A stretch of 55,378 bases of DNA from Armatimonadota bacterium. Its GTDB lineage: Bacteria > Armatimonadota > Zipacnadia > Zipacnadales > UBA11051. The position numbers were made by a program, and so were the translations under genes. Where the stretch lies: NCBI GenBank assembly GCA_046483205.1, contig JAWODS010000209.1:1-55378 (forward strand), read 5' to 3'. Shown piece after piece: positions 17,397 through 25,171 of the stretch. Positions within the stretch are counted from its first letter, which is position 1, and every line of letters begins with the position of its first letter. A model generated the notes under the pieces. The model was given only the letters and a program-made list of their open reading frames with translations. It searched no databases and was not told the origin of the DNA.

Positions 17397-18599
17397 GTGT
17401 CTGTTGAAGGCGGCGACGTGCAGCACAAGCGCCTGGGAATCTCTGCCCTCGGCCACGCTGTCAGCGATGGCCTGGTCAACTTTGTCCCACCCCTGTGGTA
17501 TGTTGTTCGAACCATTTTCTCCCTGAGCGACAGCGGCCTCGGCGTTATCATGATGCTGTTTTCCGGGGTCACGAATTTCGGCCAGCCGATTTTCGGCTAC
17601 CTCACCGACCGCCTCCGCTGGAAAAACGTCATCGGCCTCGGCATCCTCCTCAGCGTTGTGACGACCTGCTTTTTGGGCTTTATCGGCACTCTCTGGGTGT
17701 TTGTGCTGGTGCTGCTTTTGAGTGGGATCGGTACGGCGCTTTTTCATCCGCAGGGTGGAGGGGCCGCCGCCCATGCCGCGGGACACCGTCGTGCGTTCGG
17801 AATGTCAATTTTCGGTCTTGGCGGTGCGATCGGTTATGCCCTTGGTGCGCTGGTGTCTCCGGCGCTTCACAATCTCGGCCTGTCGATCGGGATGGGGCCT
17901 CTGCAGGGGTTTGTCTTCGTGCTGCCGGTGGGACTGGCCTCCGCGTATGTGCTTCACGTATATTCAGAGAGAAACACGGTTCCCGCGCCGGACATACAGT
18001 TTCATCTGCGCGAGCACCTGCTGCCTTACTGGCGCTCCATCACTCCCATACTGGGCGTCATGGTTCTGCGGGCGATGACGGTGGTGGCGTTTGCGAGCTT
18101 CTACCAGGTGGTGATCGGCGATCGGGGGCTGTCGGTCATGCACCAGGGTGGGACACTTTTTGCGTTTGTATTCGGGGGTGCCTTTGGGGGCATTATCGGG
18201 GCGCGTTTGAGCGAGCTGTGGGGGCGGCGGTTTGTCACCATCGTCACAATGCTCCTCAGCCCTCCTGTGCTGTACGCAGCGCTGTATGTCTCATACTGGC
18301 CCGCGCTGGTTTTACTGTTCATTGGCGGCTTCATTCTCCGGGCCGCCGAGCCGATCAACATCGCACAGACGCAGGACCTCGTCCCCGAAGGTATCTCCAT
18401 GGCGTCATCCATCGGCATGGGGTTGTCGTGGGGTATTGCAGGCGTCATCAGCCCGTGCGTGGGATGGGTTTCGGACGCCACCGGAGACCTCCAGTACGCG
18501 CTGGCATGGACGACTCTGCTCCCTTTCATCGGCGCAGCAGTCGGCTTTTGGCTGCCCTCGGGCAAAGGTGAAAAAGACACTGCGGAGACCGCGCAGTAG
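17397..18599 (+). CDS. MFS transporter (Fsr/fosmidomycin-resistance-like)
   Basis: 400 aa with about 12 hydrophobic segments. It carries the MFS loop motif GYLTDRLRWKN. Confidence 0.75.
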   Translation: MSVEGGDVQHKRLGISALGHAVSDGLVNFVPPLWYVVRTIFSLSDSGLGVIMMLFSGVTNFGQPIFGYLTDRLRWKNVIGLGILLSVVTTCFLGFIGTLWVFVLVLLLSGIGTALFHPQGGGAAAHAAGHRRAFGMSIFGLGGAIGYALGALVSPALHNLGLSIGMGPLQGFVFVLPVGLASAYVLHVYSERNTVPAPDIQFHLREHLLPYWRSITPILGVMVLRAMTVVAFASFYQVVIGDRGLSVMHQGGTLFAFVFGGAFGGIIGARLSELWGRRFVTIVTMLLSPPVLYAALYVSYWPALVLLFIGGFILRAAEPINIAQTQDLVPEGISMASSIGMGLSWGIAGVISPCVGWVSDATGDLQYALAWTTLLPFIGAAVGFWLPSGKGEKDTAETAQ

Positions 18600-18610
18600 C
18601 CTGCGGACAG

Positions 18611-19444
18611 GTGTGGAAGGTACCGGGCCTGCTGCTGTTGAAGATAAGAGAGGAAGGCTTGAAGACAGGGGAGGTGATGCCAGTGGCCAGAGACGAGCCA
18701 CCAAAGCACAGCGGCATAATTGGCAGCCTGGTCGCACCGGCCCCCATGATTGTCGCCGCGGTCACCGTCGGCGGGGCCCTTTTGCTGTCACCCTGGGTGC
18801 TGGTGGTGGGCGTACCGGCCTGGGGGCTGGCCGTTGTCGCAACCATTTTTGGCGAGCTCAAGGACCGCGCGCAACAGAGTATCGAACGCGACCGCCAGAT
18901 AGCGGCCCTGCCACCGGAGCTTCAGGAGATGGCGAGGCGTATTGAGCGGACCGTCGAACGGATCCATGAGACTATCGACACCTCTGATGATGACGTACGC
19001 TACATGATGGTGAATCTGCAGACCGAGGTTCGTGAGCTCGCCGACAGCTCGCGGGATTTACTAGGCTCCGCCCGGCACATGCACGAATATCTGCAGGAGC
19101 ATCCCCCGGAGGCGCTTCAGGAGCAGCGCCGCCGGTTGCGAGAGCGACTGAAGCAGGCCGACGATCAGGGTACACGCGACCAACTGCAGGAGACGCTGCA
19201 GGAGCTCGACGAGCAGATTGAGACCCGGGAGCGCATCCGGGCACTCCAGCAACGGACCGAAGCAGCCCTCAGCAACATTGATGCATCGCTCGGCACCGTT
19301 CACGCACACGTCATCCAGCTCTCATCCAATAACATGTCGGGAGTGCCCGCAGAGCGGGGACCGATGCAGGAGCTCGACGAGGTGCGCGGCTCCGTCGCCG
19401 CCCTGCAGGAGGTCATTGGCAGCGAAATGTCGCAGACAGTCTGA
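18611..19444 (+). CDS. hypothetical membrane-anchored coiled-coil protein (2 TM helices plus a charged helical domain of about 190 aa)
   Basis: The TM segments are IIGSLVAPAPMIVAAVTVGGALLL and WVLVVGVPAWGLAVVATIFG. A heptad-like E/R/Q/L-rich sequence follows. The likely true start is GTG at 18683, 8 nt after GGAGG, or ATG at 18677. I recognised no family-defining motif. Confidence 0.6.
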   Translation: MWKVPGLLLLKIREEGLKTGEVMPVARDEPPKHSGIIGSLVAPAPMIVAAVTVGGALLLSPWVLVVGVPAWGLAVVATIFGELKDRAQQSIERDRQIAALPPELQEMARRIERTVERIHETIDTSDDDVRYMMVNLQTEVRELADSSRDLLGSARHMHEYLQEHPPEALQEQRRRLRERLKQADDQGTRDQLQETLQELDEQIETRERIRALQQRTEAALSNIDASLGTVHAHVIQLSSNNMSGVPAERGPMQELDEVRGSVAALQEVIGSEMSQTV

Positions 19445-19585
19445 AGCTGTAGGCCTGTTTTGTGTGATGCAGGGAATCCAGTGAGGGCGGACAATGCAGC
19501 ATTCCGTGTTGGTGACAGGCGGCGTTTGACCGGCCAGTAGCGCTGAAAACAACATCGAAGCACGACTATCAGGGAGGCGTTTGCC

Positions 19586-20353
19586 ATGTGGCGGCGTATA
19601 AAGATGATCTTTCGGTCCATGTTCGGCTGGATGATACGGGGAGCGGAAAACCCCGAAATGATCCTGCGGCAGCACATGGAGGACCTCCGCGACCGGCTGC
19701 CTGAACTCAACAGGCAGGTTGCCGAGGTGATAAAGCTGGAGAAGATGTTGGAGATGCAGCGCGACCGGCTGCAGAAGAAGGTAGAGGACCTGGACAGGCA
19801 GGTCACTGAGGCGGTTAAAATGGGTGAGAATCACAAGGAGGCCGCCAAGACGCTCATCGCCGCTCTTCAAACCGCCCGCCAGGACCTCGAGGAGACAGAG
19901 GCGCAGCTTGAGCAGGCGAAAAAGAACTCCGGACAGACGATGAAGATGCGCGACGCCTATGAGCGGAAGATCAAGCGTGACATCCAGGAAGCGATGCGCC
20001 AGATCTCCCGGGCGAAACGCGCCGAAATCCAGGAAGAAATGTCCTCACTGCTGGCATCCTTTGAAATCGGCGACGAAAGTGACGTCCTCGACCGGATGAC
20101 CGAGCGCATTGATGAAAAAATGGCGCGAGGCGAGGCGCGCACGGAGGTCGCCCAAAGCACGGTGGATGTGCAGATGATGGACATCGAGGCCGCCGCGGTG
20201 GAGACCGAGGCCGAACAGATGTACCGCGAATACCAGCGACAACTTGGCCTTGTCGAAGACGAAGAGCCCACCGACCGGACGATGGAGCCGGTGGAGACCG
20301 ACAGCGAACAACAGGAGCCGCCTGAGACGGAAATAACCACCGAAGAAGGGTAA
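19586..20353 (+). CDS. pspA: PspA/IM30 family protein (phage-shock protein A / Vipp1 / LiaH family; ESCRT-III superfamily)
   Basis: 255 aa. The N-terminus FRSMFGWMIRGAENPEMILRQHMEDLRDRL aligns with E. coli PspA [37 protein letters not shown]. It has a long coiled coil and the conserved late segment DVLDRMTERIDEKMARGEA. SD GGGAGG lies 8 nt upstream. Confidence 0.85.
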   Translation: MWRRIKMIFRSMFGWMIRGAENPEMILRQHMEDLRDRLPELNRQVAEVIKLEKMLEMQRDRLQKKVEDLDRQVTEAVKMGENHKEAAKTLIAALQTARQDLEETEAQLEQAKKNSGQTMKMRDAYERKIKRDIQEAMRQISRAKRAEIQEEMSSLLASFEIGDESDVLDRMTERIDEKMARGEARTEVAQSTVDVQMMDIEAAAVETEAEQMYREYQRQLGLVEDEEPTDRTMEPVETDSEQQEPPETEITTEEG

Positions 20354-20359
20354 GCCACC

Positions 20360-22081
20360 ATGAGCGGGAGGCACGATAGCGATACCCTCGAAAAATGGCC
20401 CGAGTGGGCCCTGAATATCAGGCGCAGCTACCTCTCCGGGGCCGCCTCGGTGTTTCTGCTGCACGGCGTCCGCGACAGTATCTCCTTTCGCGGCCGTTTC
20501 GTGCCGCTCAGTGATTTCCTCAATTACGCCTTCTGCGGGGACAAAACCACCGTGTATTACGATGTTGCACGGGGCATAAGCTTCCCGTCACCGGAGGATG
20601 AAAAGGAATTCAGGCGGTTTGTGGATGTGTACAGCAGGCGCAGCGGGGTGGCTGTGGACCTGAGGGAAAGCTACCGTCCGGAGATTGCCATTCCGCTGCT
20701 GGAGTCATTTCTCACCACCCGCGATGGCGCGGGAGTGATTATTGATTATGTCGAGAAACTGGCGCCGCGCGAAGAGGAGCGGTTCATGAGCTTCAGCCAG
20801 CGCCGGTTGGTCACGACGCTGCAGCGCTGGGGAAGCGATCCTCGGCTGGTGCGGCGCAACAATTTCGTCTTCATGATCGCCGAAGCCCTCACCGAAGTCC
20901 ACGAGGACCTGTATAACGGGACGGGTGGAACGAAGGTCGTCAGCCTGCCCCTGCCGGATTATGACGAGCGGCTGGAGTTCATCAACTTCGCCGTTGAAAG
21001 CGAGGACCTCGGTGGCGACTGTCACCTCGACATCTCACGGGAGGCCCTGGCGACGAATACCGACGGCCTCACCCGGGTGCAGATCGGCCGGCTTATCCAG
21101 CGGGCGGTGGGTGACGGCGAAACCCTCAGCCTCCGCCACACCTCGGAGTACAAGCGGGAGGTCATACAGTCCGAAATTGGTGACCTCGTGGCCTTCATGC
21201 AGCCGGAGCTGGGGCTGGACGCCGTGGCAGGCGTCGAACGGCAAAAGCGGCTGCTGGTGCAGACTGCCGAAGCCTTGCGGGAGGGACGAAAGGATATCGT
21301 TCCGAAGGGCATTCTGCTGGTGGGGCCACCGGGATGTGGAAAGACCTTCACCATGGAGTGTTTCGCCCATGACGCAGGTATCCCGTTTGTGCAGCTCCGC
21401 AATATCTTCAGCAAGTACGTGGGCTCAACGGAGAGCAATCTCGAGCGCGTATTTCACTACCTGAACGCCCTGGCGCCCGTATTCGTGTTCATTGACGAGT
21501 TCGACCAGTCGTACGGCAGGCGCGTCACCAGTGACACGGACAGCGGGGTCACCAGGCGTGTTTTTGGGATGTTCAACTCGTTTCTGGCCGATGAAAGCCA
21601 CCAGGGGCGGATTCTGTTCGGCGCGGCAACCAACAGGCCCGATCTGATCGATCCCTCCACCATGCGGGCCGGGCGCTTTGACATGAAGCTGCCGTTTTTG
21701 CTGCCCGGTGAAGAGGCCCGGAGCGCGATATTGCACGTCAGCATGAAGACGCTGGGAATCGAGCACGAGGGGCTGGACCTGGCCGGGATTCCAGAAAAGA
21801 CGCAGGGATACTCCGGCGCCGACCTCAAGGAGCTGTGTAAAGTGGCCCAGCGCCAGGCGGCCTTCGATGGACGCAGGGAGGTAGGGCTGCAAGACCTGGA
21901 GTTCGCCGTCGAGGACTACATCACCCCGACCGCGTCACGGCGTGATGAAATACGCTACATGGAGCTTCTGGCCGTTACCGCCTGCACCTCGCGCTCGCTT
22001 TTGCCGGAACAATACCTGTCCGCCATTGATTCGGGCACGATTTTTGAGGACCTGCGCGAGCTTGAGACGCTCGTTCGGTAG
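20360..22081 (+). CDS. classical-clade AAA+ ATPase with an uncharacterised N-terminal region of about 300 aa
   Basis: 573 aa. It has Walker A GPPGCGKT (21323-21346), Walker B VFVFIDEFD, sensor-1/SRH ATNRPDLIDPSTMRAGRFD and YSGADLKELC. It has no GAFTGA loop and no C-terminal HTH. It starts 6 nt after the pspA stop. Confidence 0.88.
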   Translation: MSGRHDSDTLEKWPEWALNIRRSYLSGAASVFLLHGVRDSISFRGRFVPLSDFLNYAFCGDKTTVYYDVARGISFPSPEDEKEFRRFVDVYSRRSGVAVDLRESYRPEIAIPLLESFLTTRDGAGVIIDYVEKLAPREEERFMSFSQRRLVTTLQRWGSDPRLVRRNNFVFMIAEALTEVHEDLYNGTGGTKVVSLPLPDYDERLEFINFAVESEDLGGDCHLDISREALATNTDGLTRVQIGRLIQRAVGDGETLSLRHTSEYKREVIQSEIGDLVAFMQPELGLDAVAGVERQKRLLVQTAEALREGRKDIVPKGILLVGPPGCGKTFTMECFAHDAGIPFVQLRNIFSKYVGSTESNLERVFHYLNALAPVFVFIDEFDQSYGRRVTSDTDSGVTRRVFGMFNSFLADESHQGRILFGAATNRPDLIDPSTMRAGRFDMKLPFLLPGEEARSAILHVSMKTLGIEHEGLDLAGIPEKTQGYSGADLKELCKVAQRQAAFDGRREVGLQDLEFAVEDYITPTASRRDEIRYMELLAVTACTSRSLLPEQYLSAIDSGTIFEDLRELETLVR

Positions 22082-22201
22082 CCGCTGGAAACCTTTTGCC
22101 CTCTGGCGGCGTTCAAATCATCGGTGAGATACCCCGGGGGCCATATATAGAGTTGAGAGCCCGGGCGAGGAGCATACGTTGACAAAGGACAGTCATTATT
22201 C

Positions 22202-23008
22202 GTGAAAAGCTTCACAAGGCTCTGGCGCTGGCGCCAGGCTGTATCATATCTGGTCAAACGCGATCTGAAAGTGCGGTACAAAAACTCCGCACTTGGTTTT
22301 TTCTGGTCGTTTTTGAATCCCCTCACCCAGATCATCGTCATGACCGTTGCCTTCCGCTACATCATCCAGATCGACATGCCCAATTATTCTGTGCAGCTCT
22401 TCGTTGTTTTCCTGCCGTGGATGTTTTTCATGCAGACCCTGGGTGATGGGGCAGATTGCGTGGCGCAGGATGCCGCACTCATCAAAAAATTCGCCTTCCC
22501 CCGCATAATACTGCCCATATCAAAGATGCTGTCGAACTTCGTGCACATGCTCTTCGGCTATGTGGTTCTGATTGCGATATTCATTTATCTCGACATTGTT
22601 GTGCATCCCTCGTTTGCACTCGTTCCCGTCTTTTTCGTCATCCAGATGATATTCATGCTCGGGCTGGTGCTGATATTCTCGGTTTTGCGGATGTATTATG
22701 ATGACATCCGCTTCATCCTTGAGGCGCTCCTGCGGCTGTGGTTCTATCTTACGCCGATTGCATACGATATCGAGCATGTGCTCGGTGCGTCGCAAATCGC
22801 GCCGTTTTTGAAAAAGCTGTACATCATGGCAAACCCCCTGACGCCGCTCATGATCGGCTACCGCAAGGCTCTGCTGGAGGGCGGGCAGTGGCCGATGGAG
22901 CAGTTCTGGCAGTATGTCGGGGTGTCGGCGGAGCTGTCGATACTTATCCTGGTAATAGGGCTGCTGATATGGCGGCGGCACAGCTGGCAGTTTCCGGAGC
23001 TTCTGTAA
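22202..23008 (+). CDS. ABC-2 type polysaccharide/O-antigen/teichoic-acid export permease
   Basis: 268 aa with 6 TM segments. The N-terminal VKRDLKVRYKNSALGFFWSFLNPL is the Wzm/TagG signature. Confidence 0.85.
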   Translation: MKSFTRLWRWRQAVSYLVKRDLKVRYKNSALGFFWSFLNPLTQIIVMTVAFRYIIQIDMPNYSVQLFVVFLPWMFFMQTLGDGADCVAQDAALIKKFAFPRIILPISKMLSNFVHMLFGYVVLIAIFIYLDIVVHPSFALVPVFFVIQMIFMLGLVLIFSVLRMYYDDIRFILEALLRLWFYLTPIAYDIEHVLGASQIAPFLKKLYIMANPLTPLMIGYRKALLEGGQWPMEQFWQYVGVSAELSILILVIGLLIWRRHSWQFPELL

Positions 23009-23775
23009 TGCCTGCGAACACACTTGTAGAAGTGGACAATCTGAAAAAGCGCTTCAACGTCCGCCACGAAAAGTGGACGTCGCTGAAACGGTCACTGCTG
23101 CGGCTCTTCCGGCCGTATCCGCACGAGGCATTCTGGGCACTGAAGGGCGTCTCAGTGACCATAAAGGCCGGTGAGCTCATCGGCGTTGTCGGCGTCAACG
23201 GGTCCGGGAAGAGCACACTTCTGCGGATCATCGGCGGCATTTATGTTCCGACAGAGGGCTCCGTCAACATTCACGCCCCGGTCAGCAGCCTCTTCGAGCT
23301 GGAAACCGGCTTCAATCCCCAGTTGACCGGATATGAGAACGTGTTTCTGAGCGGATCCCTGATGGGCTACAGCGGGCGGGAAATCGAGCAGGCGATGCCG
23401 GAAGTCGAAGCAATGTCGGAGCTGGAGGAGTTCCTGGAGATCCCCGTGAAGCTGTATTCATCCGGAATGCGCTTCCGGCTCGGTTTTGGTATCGCCATGT
23501 CCTTCGAACCCCAGATACTGCTGGTGGATGAGGTCCTGGCCGCGGCAGATGAGGCGTTTCAGAGAACCGCATACCGCAAGCTGGCAAGCTATCAGCAGAA
23601 GGGCGCCGCTGTCGTGCTGGTCTCACACGAGCTCGACAAAGTCAGGGAACATTGTGAACGTGTTATCTGGCTCGAAAACGGCCGCATTCGTCGCGATGGG
23701 AAGACCGATGACGTCCTTGACGCGTATTTAAAGGAGATCAACGAGGAGAATACAGGCGGGCAAGACGGTGACTGA
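23008..23775 (+). CDS. ABC transporter ATP-binding protein (Wzt/TagH-like, no C-terminal carbohydrate-binding domain)
   Basis: It has Walker A GVNGSGKST, the signature YSSGMRFRLGF and Walker B ILLVDEVL. The ATG overlaps the permease stop (TAATG). The ORF-track start at 22738 was rejected. Confidence 0.88.
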   Translation: MPANTLVEVDNLKKRFNVRHEKWTSLKRSLLRLFRPYPHEAFWALKGVSVTIKAGELIGVVGVNGSGKSTLLRIIGGIYVPTEGSVNIHAPVSSLFELETGFNPQLTGYENVFLSGSLMGYSGREIEQAMPEVEAMSELEEFLEIPVKLYSSGMRFRLGFGIAMSFEPQILLVDEVLAAADEAFQRTAYRKLASYQQKGAAVVLVSHELDKVREHCERVIWLENGRIRRDGKTDDVLDAYLKEINEENTGGQDGD

Positions 23776-25171
23776 GACACCGGAGCTGCAAAGGGAGAAC
23801 GAAAATGGTTCCCTGCCGGGCCCCGGAGTGCGGTGGCTTTGGGCGATAATCGTTGCGTATCTGCTCCTGGCAGGTGCGGCGGCGTGGATGATGCCTCTGA
23901 CACATAATGACCCGCGGTGGCCCGAACAAACGCGTCAGAAGTTTATTCCCCCGGACGAAGAGGCCCATATTGGATATATCCAGTATCTTATTGACCACCG
24001 CAGATTGCCCGTGTTCGAGGATCCTGACGCAAACTACGAGGCCCATCAACCCCCGGTTTTTTATCTCTCCTGTATCCCTGCCTTTCTGGCCGGGCGTGCG
24101 GTGGGAGAGTTGGTAACACCCTCCGAGACGCTAATGTCCGCCGTATTCTTTGTGCGTCTGTGGTGCGTGCTGATCGGCGCGGGGGTGATATACGCAGTCT
24201 ATCTGCTGGGACTGTATCTTTTTCCGAAAAGCCACCGCCTGGCCCTTGCCGCCGCCGCTTTTGCGGCACTCCTTCCAATGCACTGGGTGAATGTGGCCGG
24301 TGTCACCAATGACGGGCTGTGCGAGCTGATGGCGACGGTGGCGCTCATAGCCGCCTGCAGCCTTTCACAAAAGCCCACGGCACGCAAGGCCATCACCCTG
24401 GGCCTCCTGATCGGCGTCGGCGTGCTGGTGAAGTCCACCATGGTCATCATGTTTGCGGTGGCTGTGTTCGCCATCGGGATGGCGAAAATTGAGGATGACG
24501 GACGTGAGAAGCTGTGGACAATGGCGAAGCTGCTGGGTACGGTATGTGGCATCGCGATACTTGTCTGTGGGTGGTGGCTTCTGCGGAACCAGCTTCTGTA
24601 CGGCGATCCGCTGGTGCAAAAAGCGTTTGTAGAGCTGTTCAGCCAGGATCGCGCCACACCACAATGGTTTTTCGACCGGGGCCTGGCTCCGTCCGGCTAT
24701 TTGATGCTGGTGGTTGTCTCGACGATCTTCAGCTACTGGGGAGTCTTCGGCCAGGCCATCGTGTATATGCCTGCGTGGTATTACCTCATCGGCTTCGCGC
24801 TGTGGCTGCCCATGTTTGTAGGCCTGCTGAAAGTATGGTGGCAGGGGCGAAAACAGGAGGATACGACGCTTTCGGCTCCCTGGGTGCTTTCAGCAGTGAC
24901 GGTGCTTCTGGCAGGGTTTGTGCTCCTGCGGTTTAATATGAGCTTTTTCCAGGCCCAGGCGCGGTACCTGTTTGTGGCGATAGGGCCGATCGCGGGGGTT
25001 TTCGTCGCCGGCTGGTGGCAGATGCTGCCGGGGCCGCGCGAACAGCGGAAACGATACTGGAGGACGGTGATGTGGGTGATCTTCGTTTGCCTCGGCGTCA
25101 TGGCGCTGGTGGCCCTGTGGAACCTCCAGCCCGGCAGCCCCATACGATTCTCGCCGATTACAGGAATGTAA
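23768..25171 (+). CDS. GT-C fold membrane glycosyltransferase (PMT/ArnT-like, GT39/GT83-type)
   Basis: 467 aa with at least 10 TM segments. The first periplasmic-loop motif is PPDEEAHIGYIQY (the DE/DD motif of GT-C enzymes). Its start overlaps the wzt stop by 8 nt. Confidence 0.7.
   Translation: MTETPELQRENENGSLPGPGVRWLWAIIVAYLLLAGAAAWMMPLTHNDPRWPEQTRQKFIPPDEEAHIGYIQYLIDHRRLPVFEDPDANYEAHQPPVFYLSCIPAFLAGRAVGELVTPSETLMSAVFFVRLWCVLIGAGVIYAVYLLGLYLFPKSHRLALAAAAFAALLPMHWVNVAGVTNDGLCELMATVALIAACSLSQKPTARKAITLGLLIGVGVLVKSTMVIMFAVAVFAIGMAKIEDDGREKLWTMAKLLGTVCGIAILVCGWWLLRNQLLYGDPLVQKAFVELFSQDRATPQWFFDRGLAPSGYLMLVVVSTIFSYWGVFGQAIVYMPAWYYLIGFALWLPMFVGLLKVWWQGRKQEDTTLSAPWVLSAVTVLLAGFVLLRFNMSFFQAQARYLFVAIGPIAGVFVAGWWQMLPGPREQRKRYWRTVMWVIFVCLGVMALVALWNLQPGSPIRFSPITGM

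Follow-up and report, generated by a model that had tools for sequence, protein, structure and literature searches.

Domain organization of the ATPase and its active module

The 55,378-nucleotide (nt) contig JAWODS010000209.1 of an Armatimonadota bacterium (assembly GCA_046483205.1; this whole stretch is hereafter the window) encodes a classical AAA ATPase of 573 amino acids (aa) whose start codon (ATG) follows, at a distance of 6 nt, the stop codon of PspA_IM30 (19586..20353). The analysis of this protein shows that residues ~13-276 make up a complete, catalytically dead classical AAA module, N-terminal to an intact one. An earlier note on this DNA, made from the sequence alone, had claimed that the N-terminal ~300 aa are a degenerate second nucleotide-binding-like domain, not an MIT domain, and had suggested either a tandem D1(dead)-D2(active) architecture or a novel substrate-recognition domain. 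The two modules are denoted below the N-tier and the C-tier, and the features of the gene, all on the + strand, are as follows.

20360..22081, +, two-tier ATPase gene (573 aa; degenerate N-tier followed by active C-tier, classical AAA)
20396..20947, +, N-tier alpha/beta subdomain (residues 13-196; DSSP of the model and, from residue 105, hhalign against the active module)
20444-20479, +, ASVFLLHGVRDS (residues 29-40), at the Walker A place, falling on beta1
20459..20476, +, P-loop remnant LHGVRD (residues 34-39), directly after beta1, assigned by element order in the model
20573..20677, +, N-tier insertion of ~35 residues (residues 72-106; model, hhalign and column counts)
20732-20773, +, GVIIDYVEKLAPRE (residues 125-138), Walker B-like, falling on beta3
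20738..20755, +, Walker B remnant IIDYVE (residues 127-132), aligned to FIDELD of p97 D1 and to the protein's own FIDEFD
20861-20896, +, NFVFMIAEALTE (residues 168-179), beta4 and sensor-1 remnant (hhalign column mapping)
20945..20974, +, LPLPDYDERL (residues 196-205), a classical-AAA structural hallmark after beta5
20960..21187, +, N-tier helical lid of four helices (residues 201-276; model and alignments to the lids of Cdc48 D1 and D2 and of the C-tier)
21188..21235, +, inter-tier linker (residues 277-292; structural model)
21236..21916, +, active classical AAA module (residues 293-519; Pfam and motif scan)
21323-21346, +, C-tier Walker A, GPPGCGKT (residues 322-329)
21410-21424, +, C-tier pore loop 1, SKYVG (KYVG at residues 352-355)
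21488-21505, +, C-tier Walker B, FIDEFD (residues 377-382)
21623-21643, +, C-tier sensor 1, AATNRPD (residues 422-428)
21665-21682, +, C-tier Arg fingers, RAGRFD (residues 436-441), with the lid after them
21926..22075, +, C-terminal three-helix extension, family-specific (residues 523-572; structural model)

The C-tier possesses every attribute of the classical AAA domain (PF00004), namely Walker A and Walker B, the sensor-1 Asn, the Arg fingers of the second region of homology (SRH), an aromatic pore loop 1 and a lid. The only Pfam matches in the ATPase, AAA (8.9e-28, residues 318-445) and AAA_lid_3 (6.2e-10, residues 472-514), are confined to this C-terminal module, as is the sole G....GK[ST] pattern, GPPGCGKT, with its GK[ST] at residue 327; the statement of the earlier note that the N-terminal region contains no GKT is accurate. 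In the structural model described below, the active module runs from alpha0 (293-307) and beta1 (317-321) through beta5 (442-445) to the lid (451-519). The three-helix extension that follows lies outside the Pfam AAA models and carries a conserved 'C..R.LLP..Y' motif in which P549 is almost invariant (consensus of the 75-sequence alignment A2).

The N-terminal tier has the fold of an AAA module

Residues 1-300 do not match any Pfam family at E<=1, MIT included, and therefore an MIT domain is absent. The structure of the entire protein was predicted using AlphaFold2 (AF2) with the full-length alignment A2 as the input, which yielded a predicted local distance difference test score (pLDDT) of 95.3 and a predicted template modelling score (pTM) of 0.90; the prediction from the single sequence (pLDDT 36) was unusable. 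In the high-confidence model, residues 13-276 form an alpha/beta subdomain and a helical lid, in agreement with the alternating beta/alpha character previously noticed in this region. The order of the elements (DSSP of the model) is alpha0 (15-25), beta1 (31-36), a beta-hairpin (40-49), alpha1 (50-58), beta2 (63-68), an insertion (72-106, including helix 78-95), alpha2 (107-120), beta3 (124-129), alpha3 (145-159), beta4 (169-174) and beta5 (191-196), which is the order of the protein's own active module. The lid contains TDGLTRVQI, the counterpart of 'T.G.SGADL'.

Two departures from the active module stand out in the model. The beta-hairpin sits at the place of the P-loop, and the insertion, with its 18-residue helix, is located between beta2 and alpha2, at the position of pore loop 1 of the active module; hhalign pairs the helix that follows (107-120) with alpha2 of the active module. 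The insertion opens with the motif 'G-I-x-F', in which G72 is present in all 75 homologues and F75 in 67 of them.

Foldseek comparison of the whole-chain model, rather than the N-tier by itself, with the Protein Data Bank (PDB) aligned 560-600 columns with chains of p97, Cdc48, Rix7 and Afg2 that comprise D1+D2 (E ~1e-25; TMq 0.57-0.63 for substrate-engaged protomers). Structure prediction followed by a structure search, which the earlier note had called for with residues 1-300, led with the whole chain to the p97/Cdc48 D1+D2 architecture.

Sequence similarity between the N-terminal tier and AAA modules

For sequence comparison, a profile was built from the N-domains only (A3), trimmed at residue 285; because of this cut, it carries no active-module sequence. 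Searched against the PDB sequences, A3 matched Cdc48 at 1e-16, with D1 and D2 matched separately, as well as single-module chains, namely p97 D2 (1.4e-7), Vps4 (2.6e-7) and PAN (4.2e-7); a smaller N-domain profile (A1) reached 2e-8. Comparison of the N-terminal and C-terminal halves of the family, split at residue 285, with each other using hhalign yielded a probability of 96.1% in the local mode (E=3e-9, residues 105-269) and 97.5% in the global mode. By these comparisons, the N-tier resembles AAA modules far more than chance would allow, and the detectable homology spans alpha2 and beta3 through the lid. With the alpha/beta order, the helical lid and the homology to AAA modules all present, the N-tier has the attributes of the classical AAA fold.

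The front part of the domain is a different matter. Since the first ~100 residues are recognisable by fold only, the identification of 'FLLHG' as the strand ahead of the P-loop rests on element order; beta1 and the 'Walker A position' are assigned from the predicted fold and the order of the elements only. With this proviso for beta1, the three motifs quoted in the earlier note are where it had placed them and fall on beta1, beta3 and beta4 as it had proposed.

It could be argued that the N-terminal 300 aa are instead a novel recognition domain unrelated to AAA, or an MIT-like or other known adaptor, given that no Pfam family matches this region and that its front ~100 residues have no significant AAA match in sequence. 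We find this hardly credible in view of the profile matches to the Cdc48, p97, Vps4 and PAN modules and to the protein's own active module, the two-tier Foldseek alignment with p97, and an alpha/beta secondary structure that a three-helix MIT domain could not have; within the limits of computation, an unrelated or MIT-like N-domain is refuted. Of the two options raised originally, the tandem dead-D1, active-D2 arrangement is borne out by the p97/Cdc48-like two-tier fold, the profile homology and the protein's own active module, and a novel recognition domain is not needed.

Lost catalytic residues and retained skeleton of the N-terminal tier

The N-tier columns were mapped onto the active module through the hhalign alignment, and residues were counted in the 75 homologues. 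Every determinant of an active ATPase (the P-loop Lys/Thr and the Walker B Glu, sensor 1, the Arg fingers) is replaced in the N-tier. At the place of the P-loop, the family has the motif F-[LI]-L-H-G-(N)-[VI]-x-D, and neither the 75 homologues, in their N-domains, nor residues 1-300 of the window protein contain G....GK[ST]. In the Walker B remnant, Asp129 is kept (D/E in 60 of 75) and the catalytic Glu is replaced by Tyr130 (Y/F/H in 68 of 75). The position of the sensor-1 Asn is occupied by Ala176 (N, S and T in 31, 15 and 8 of the 75 sequences, respectively), and the Arg-finger positions correspond to N186 and G189, just upstream of LPLPDYDERL. Judging from these substitutions, the N-domain is a pseudo-ATPase across the whole family. 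The earlier claim of degeneration is thus substantiated by the fold, the profile homology to AAA modules and the replaced catalytic residues.

The structural residues of the module have been retained, namely P136, P199, D200, R204 and, in the lid, Gly236; in the hallmark 'P-x-P-D...R' that follows beta5, P199 is present in 75/75 and R204 in 73/75 sequences. Other conserved positions of the N-tier are specific to the family: D39 (74/75), Y67, G72, F75 and W157.

The unusual conservation of some polar residues (besides D39, H35 in 56/75 and E132, as E/D, in 67/75) leaves room for the idea that the N-tier is a regulatory tier that binds a nucleotide or a small ligand at a non-canonical site around H35, D39 and E132, especially as 31 of the 75 homologues still have the sensor-1 Asn and 39 have an Arg close to the finger position. 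However, the P-loop Lys/Thr is found in no member of the family, in the model the beta-hairpin sits where the P-loop would be, and the sensor-1 and Arg-finger positions of the window protein are Ala, Asn and Gly, which makes such binding very improbable.

Extent of the family and its presence in phages

A word-indexed search with residues 1-300 retrieved nine relatives, mostly from metagenome-assembled genomes of Armatimonadota. An exhaustive HMMER search with the profile of these nine N-domains identified 1761 cluster representatives at E<=1e-3, of which 981 have E<=1e-10 and 184 have E<=1e-30, mostly proteins of 560-610 aa that cover the whole 290-residue profile. Because such a large family matches over the whole profile, the N-terminal region is neither disordered nor poorly conserved; the check on orthologue conservation proposed in the earlier note therefore comes out in favour of a genuine domain. 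The named members come from Armatimonadetes, Sericytochromatia, Latescibacterota, Bacteroidia, Spirochaetota and one gammaproteobacterium, and bear generic labels such as 'AAA family ATPase', 'ATP-binding protein' or 'SpoVK/Ycf46/Vps4 family', with COG0464 assigned to several cellular members. The nearest relatives of the window ATPase are 70% identical to it. A search for genomic loci with the alignment of close relatives (A4) retrieved 80 loci, of which four (L009-L012) belong to the family, the remaining ones encoding other AAA proteins that were caught by the P-loop pattern.

The family extends to phages. The ATPase matches PHROG 8638 at 2.3e-48, and the full-length query is covered to at least 80% in 34 phage records, among them gp96 of Mycobacterium phage Corndog (L093:2312-4012; E=6e-33 over residues 47-531), which has no PspA neighbour in the phage. 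Among the 100 matches listed, the phage records include 34 from Mycobacterium and 24 from Pseudomonas phages. Phage proteins labelled 'ycf46' are the best matches in BFVD, for example, that of Pseudomonas phage SM1 (TM-score 0.75 over 602 columns), and others are annotated only as 'AAA-ATPase'. The tblastn search of phages with the N-domain alone gave no match, so that the full-length query was required to find these homologues.

Genomic context: PspA and a transmembrane coiled-coil partner

Two genes upstream of the ATPase are the focus of the context analysis:

18611..19444, +, transmembrane (TM)-coiled-coil protein of 277 aa with a two-TM hairpin and a ~190-residue helical cytosolic part (hydropathy)
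19586..20353, +, PspA/IM30 of the ESCRT-III superfamily, 255 aa (Pfam PspA_IM30, 1.2e-22)

Co-expression of PspA and the ATPase is suggested by the short gap between their genes; a promoter and terminator scan of 18300-22400 detected nothing informative between genes. The context was compared among 16 distinct family members, the window included. In seven of these (the window, L002, L004/L005, L009, L011, L012 and L090), PspA_IM30 is encoded directly upstream of the ATPase or one gene off, with a single intervening gene in L012. These PspA-linked ATPases include proteins that are as little as 35-37% identical to the window protein (L004, from Sericytochromatia, and L090). Homologues of the TM-coiled-coil protein are found upstream of the ATPase in L002, L011, L010 and L001 and, in partial form, in L009; in L010 and L001, this protein is the sole partner, and the interval to the ATPase contains no PspA. 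Altogether, PspA or the TM-coiled-coil partner adjoins the ATPase in 10 of the 16 members, PspA in seven and the TM-coiled-coil protein in a further three. Given the existence of PspA-independent and phage-borne members, the two-tier architecture is more general than the link to PspA.

The TM-coiled-coil protein does not belong to any Pfam family. We considered it as a possible divergent PspA/ESCRT-III protein and rejected this assignment: hhalign, with small, shallow profiles, gave a probability of 0.8%, and the 'divergent Snf7' label is unsupported here. Past the Pfam match, PspA has an acidic, probably disordered tail (residues 212-255, nt 20219-20350); by eye, a motif of this tail, E-E-P-x-x-R-T-M-[EDG]-[PS], is conserved in L002, L009, L011, L012 and L090, and not in L004. 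This tail is a candidate handle for the ATPase.

The breadth of the family raises the possibility that the dead N-tier is real and the ATPase is nevertheless a general or mobile-element unfoldase without a specific role in PspA biology, so that the adjacency is incidental or reflects another shared process, for example, one that involves the envelope and ABC-transporter genes downstream. Compatible with this are the six sampled members that lack both partners, the phage-like surroundings of L006 and L007 (many small open reading frames, ParB_N, T5orf172, an intein), the PHROG 8638 match together with Corndog gp96 and the 33 other phage records, and the ABC-2 permease that is syntenic downstream in L009-L011. 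However, PspA adjacency recurs at 35-37% ATPase identity, far past the range of gene-order retention, the 6-nt gap is suggestive of co-expression, and this gene pair was also reported from Firmicutes and Handelsmanbacteria in an independent published survey (PMC11237479). On balance, we consider an unfoldase unconnected with PspA to be unlikely.

Relationship to known AAA ATPases

The PspA-linked layout of one dead and one active tier is not a new concept: it was described computationally in 2024 by Ravi et al. in mSystems, who reported 'Inactive-Classical-AAA+Classical-AAA' proteins encoded beside PspA, with AEY64320.1 of Clostridium sp. BNL1100 and the Handelsmanbacteria locus OGG56892.1 as examples (PMC11237479). 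The Handelsmanbacteria locus also contains a TM helical protein and ABC-transporter genes (PMC11237479). That description is computational, without motif-level or structural detail, and refers to the membrane partner as a divergent Snf7 (PMC11237479). Matched by description, the window ATPase resembles these proteins in the order of the inactive and active AAA modules and in the PspA neighbour, and the window resembles these loci also in the additional membrane-anchored helical partner and the ABC-transporter genes nearby. It differs in that its TM-coiled-coil protein has no relation to PspA that is detectable by hhalign with small profiles. The window ATPase is a new Armatimonadota-like member of a computationally described, biochemically untouched family: no experimental paper on the two-tier dead-N family was found in the literature. 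The papers found on Ycf46 deal with physiology and give no domain information. To the published description, the present analysis adds a high-confidence model and a residue-level map of the lost and kept motifs, the hairpin at the P-loop, the insertion at the pore-loop position, the size of the family and its reach into phages, and the recurrent TM-coiled-coil partner.

Among characterized proteins, p97/VCP/Cdc48/VAT are the best match of both tiers in sequence and in structure. The window ATPase shares with them two stacked classical AAA modules with lids and, in D2, the KYVG pore loop, the SRH Arg fingers and AAA_lid_3. Unlike p97 D1, which binds and hydrolyses nucleotide, the N-tier has no P-loop, and the double-psi-barrel N domain of Cdc48 is absent, with only ~12 residues preceding alpha0. 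Conversely, the window protein has in addition the ~35-residue insertion at pore loop 1, the hairpin at the P-loop and the C-terminal three-helix extension. In the absence of the N-terminal barrel and of a P-loop in D1, it is not Cdc48; with the NCBIfam CDC48 model, whose cut-off is 803 bits, it reaches 129.

Like Vps4/CdvC, the window protein is a classical AAA ATPase encoded beside a gene that belongs to the ESCRT-III superfamily; its predicted job, using ATP to take subunits off a membrane-bound polymer, would be the same. However, it lacks an MIT domain, has two tiers rather than one and shows no match to Vps4_C or the beta-domain. On this protein, CdvC falls well short of CDC48, FtsH and PAN (1e-23 for CdvC vs 1.7e-37 for CDC48; the CdvC model, with its cut-off at 650 bits, reaches 83.9), and given this difference, together with the lack of MIT and the two tiers, the window ATPase is not an orthologue of Vps4. 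The same layout as in the window, at full length, is found in the two-tier AAA-ATPases of phages (PHROG 8638, Corndog gp96 and the 'ycf46' protein of SM1).

Pex1/Pex6 and NSF are type II AAA ATPases in which one catalytically silent ring serves as a scaffold or channel and the other ring is the motor; their silent rings still bind ATP via the P-loop, and that of NSF is C-terminal. The N-ring of the window protein differs from these by the loss of the P-loop.

Several other identities were examined and rejected. For the anti-phage ATPase IetA/IteA, the IteA model scores 95.6 bits against a cut-off of 510, the PADLOC IetA matches are limited to the active module, and there is no protease among the neighbouring genes. 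The matches to TRIP13 are restricted to the generic AAA module and are far under the cut-offs. A PspF-type regulator was dismissed because the Pfam scan detected neither Sigma54_activat nor HTH_8.

A likely role in the remodelling of PspA

Taken as a whole, the observations are best explained by a type II AAA ATPase with a dead D1 and an active D2 that remodels PspA, an explanation that we consider likely. The ATPase would probably assemble into a hexamer of two stacked rings. The N-ring, free of nucleotide, could serve as an assembly scaffold and as the tier of entry and docking; the D2 ring, in which Walker A, Walker B, the KYVG pore loop, sensor 1 and the Arg fingers are intact, would be the ATP-powered motor that pulls on the substrate. 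The likeliest substrates appear to be PspA, whose gene ends 6 nt upstream, and/or the two-TM coiled-coil protein encoded one gene further up, and the ATPase might take hold of PspA by the acidic tail at its C-terminus. PspA polymers on the membrane would in this way be taken apart or remodelled at the cost of ATP, an action functionally analogous to that of Vps4 on ESCRT-III, with a dead AAA ring in the MIT domain's stead.

Several considerations weigh against this interpretation. At the level of structure, the first ~100 residues of the N-tier have no significant sequence similarity to AAA modules, being recognisable only by their fold, and global hhalign places them differently from the model-based beta1, albeit with low confidence (this front half of the alignment was not used in motif mapping). 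Ring formation, the pore-facing residues and any pocket are putative, and the part assigned to the N-ring, whether scaffold, receptor or both, is suggested by analogy with p97, NSF and Pex1/Pex6. At the level of context, the connection between the ATPase and PspA is known from genomes alone, six of the 16 sampled members (L003, L006, L007, L008, L089 and L091) have neither partner nearby, some of the sampled members (L006 and L007) reside in phage-like contexts, and phages themselves encode full-length homologues.

A more specific version of the remodelling hypothesis holds that the N-ring is a dedicated receptor for the PspA tail and/or the two-TM partner that replaces the interaction of MIT with its binding motif (MIT-MIM), so that the membrane anchor, PspA and the two-tier ATPase, as a three-gene unit, would constitute a bacterial ESCRT-III with its disassemblase. 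We put this forward tentatively, as a possibility that is somewhat doubtful at present. If true, it would contradict the claim made in reviews that bacteria lack a Vps4-type regulator of PspA polymers; Vps4-like ATPases are considered to be absent from bacteria (PMC7619361, PMC10936438).

A classical AAA unfoldase encoded right after pspA in several phyla is the obvious candidate for the missing activity in the disassembly and recycling of bacterial PspA/Vipp1 polymers. The structural detail and the new lineage represent a modest gain; the greater interest would lie in the idea of a missing bacterial ESCRT-III remodelling ATPase. With a dead AAA ring, rather than an MIT domain, as the N-terminal half, the expected assembly would be a stable hexamer of two rings that holds one nucleotide per protomer, docking of PspA should be sought on the N-tier, and the D2 mutations E380Q or K328A would be informative.

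Architectural variants and downstream genes

Some members of the family depart from the common layout. Three proteins of 818-856 aa (P0014, P0015 and P0034, the last at L003:1909-4479) contain two tandem dead N-domains before the active module, and such members with a doubled dead N-domain are predicted to be three-tier ATPases. Inteins with LAGLIDADG homing endonucleases are inserted near the P-loop of the active module in P0069, P0107, P0124, P0142 and L006:5001-7158.

Downstream of the ATPase in the window, the + strand at 22202-25171 encodes an ABC-2 permease, an ABC ATPase and a PMT_2-type glycosyltransferase; in L009, L010 and L011, the ABC-2 permease is likewise found downstream of the ATPase. 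The permease echoes the association with ABC transporters noted by Ravi et al. and may simply reflect the conservation of gene order among close relatives.

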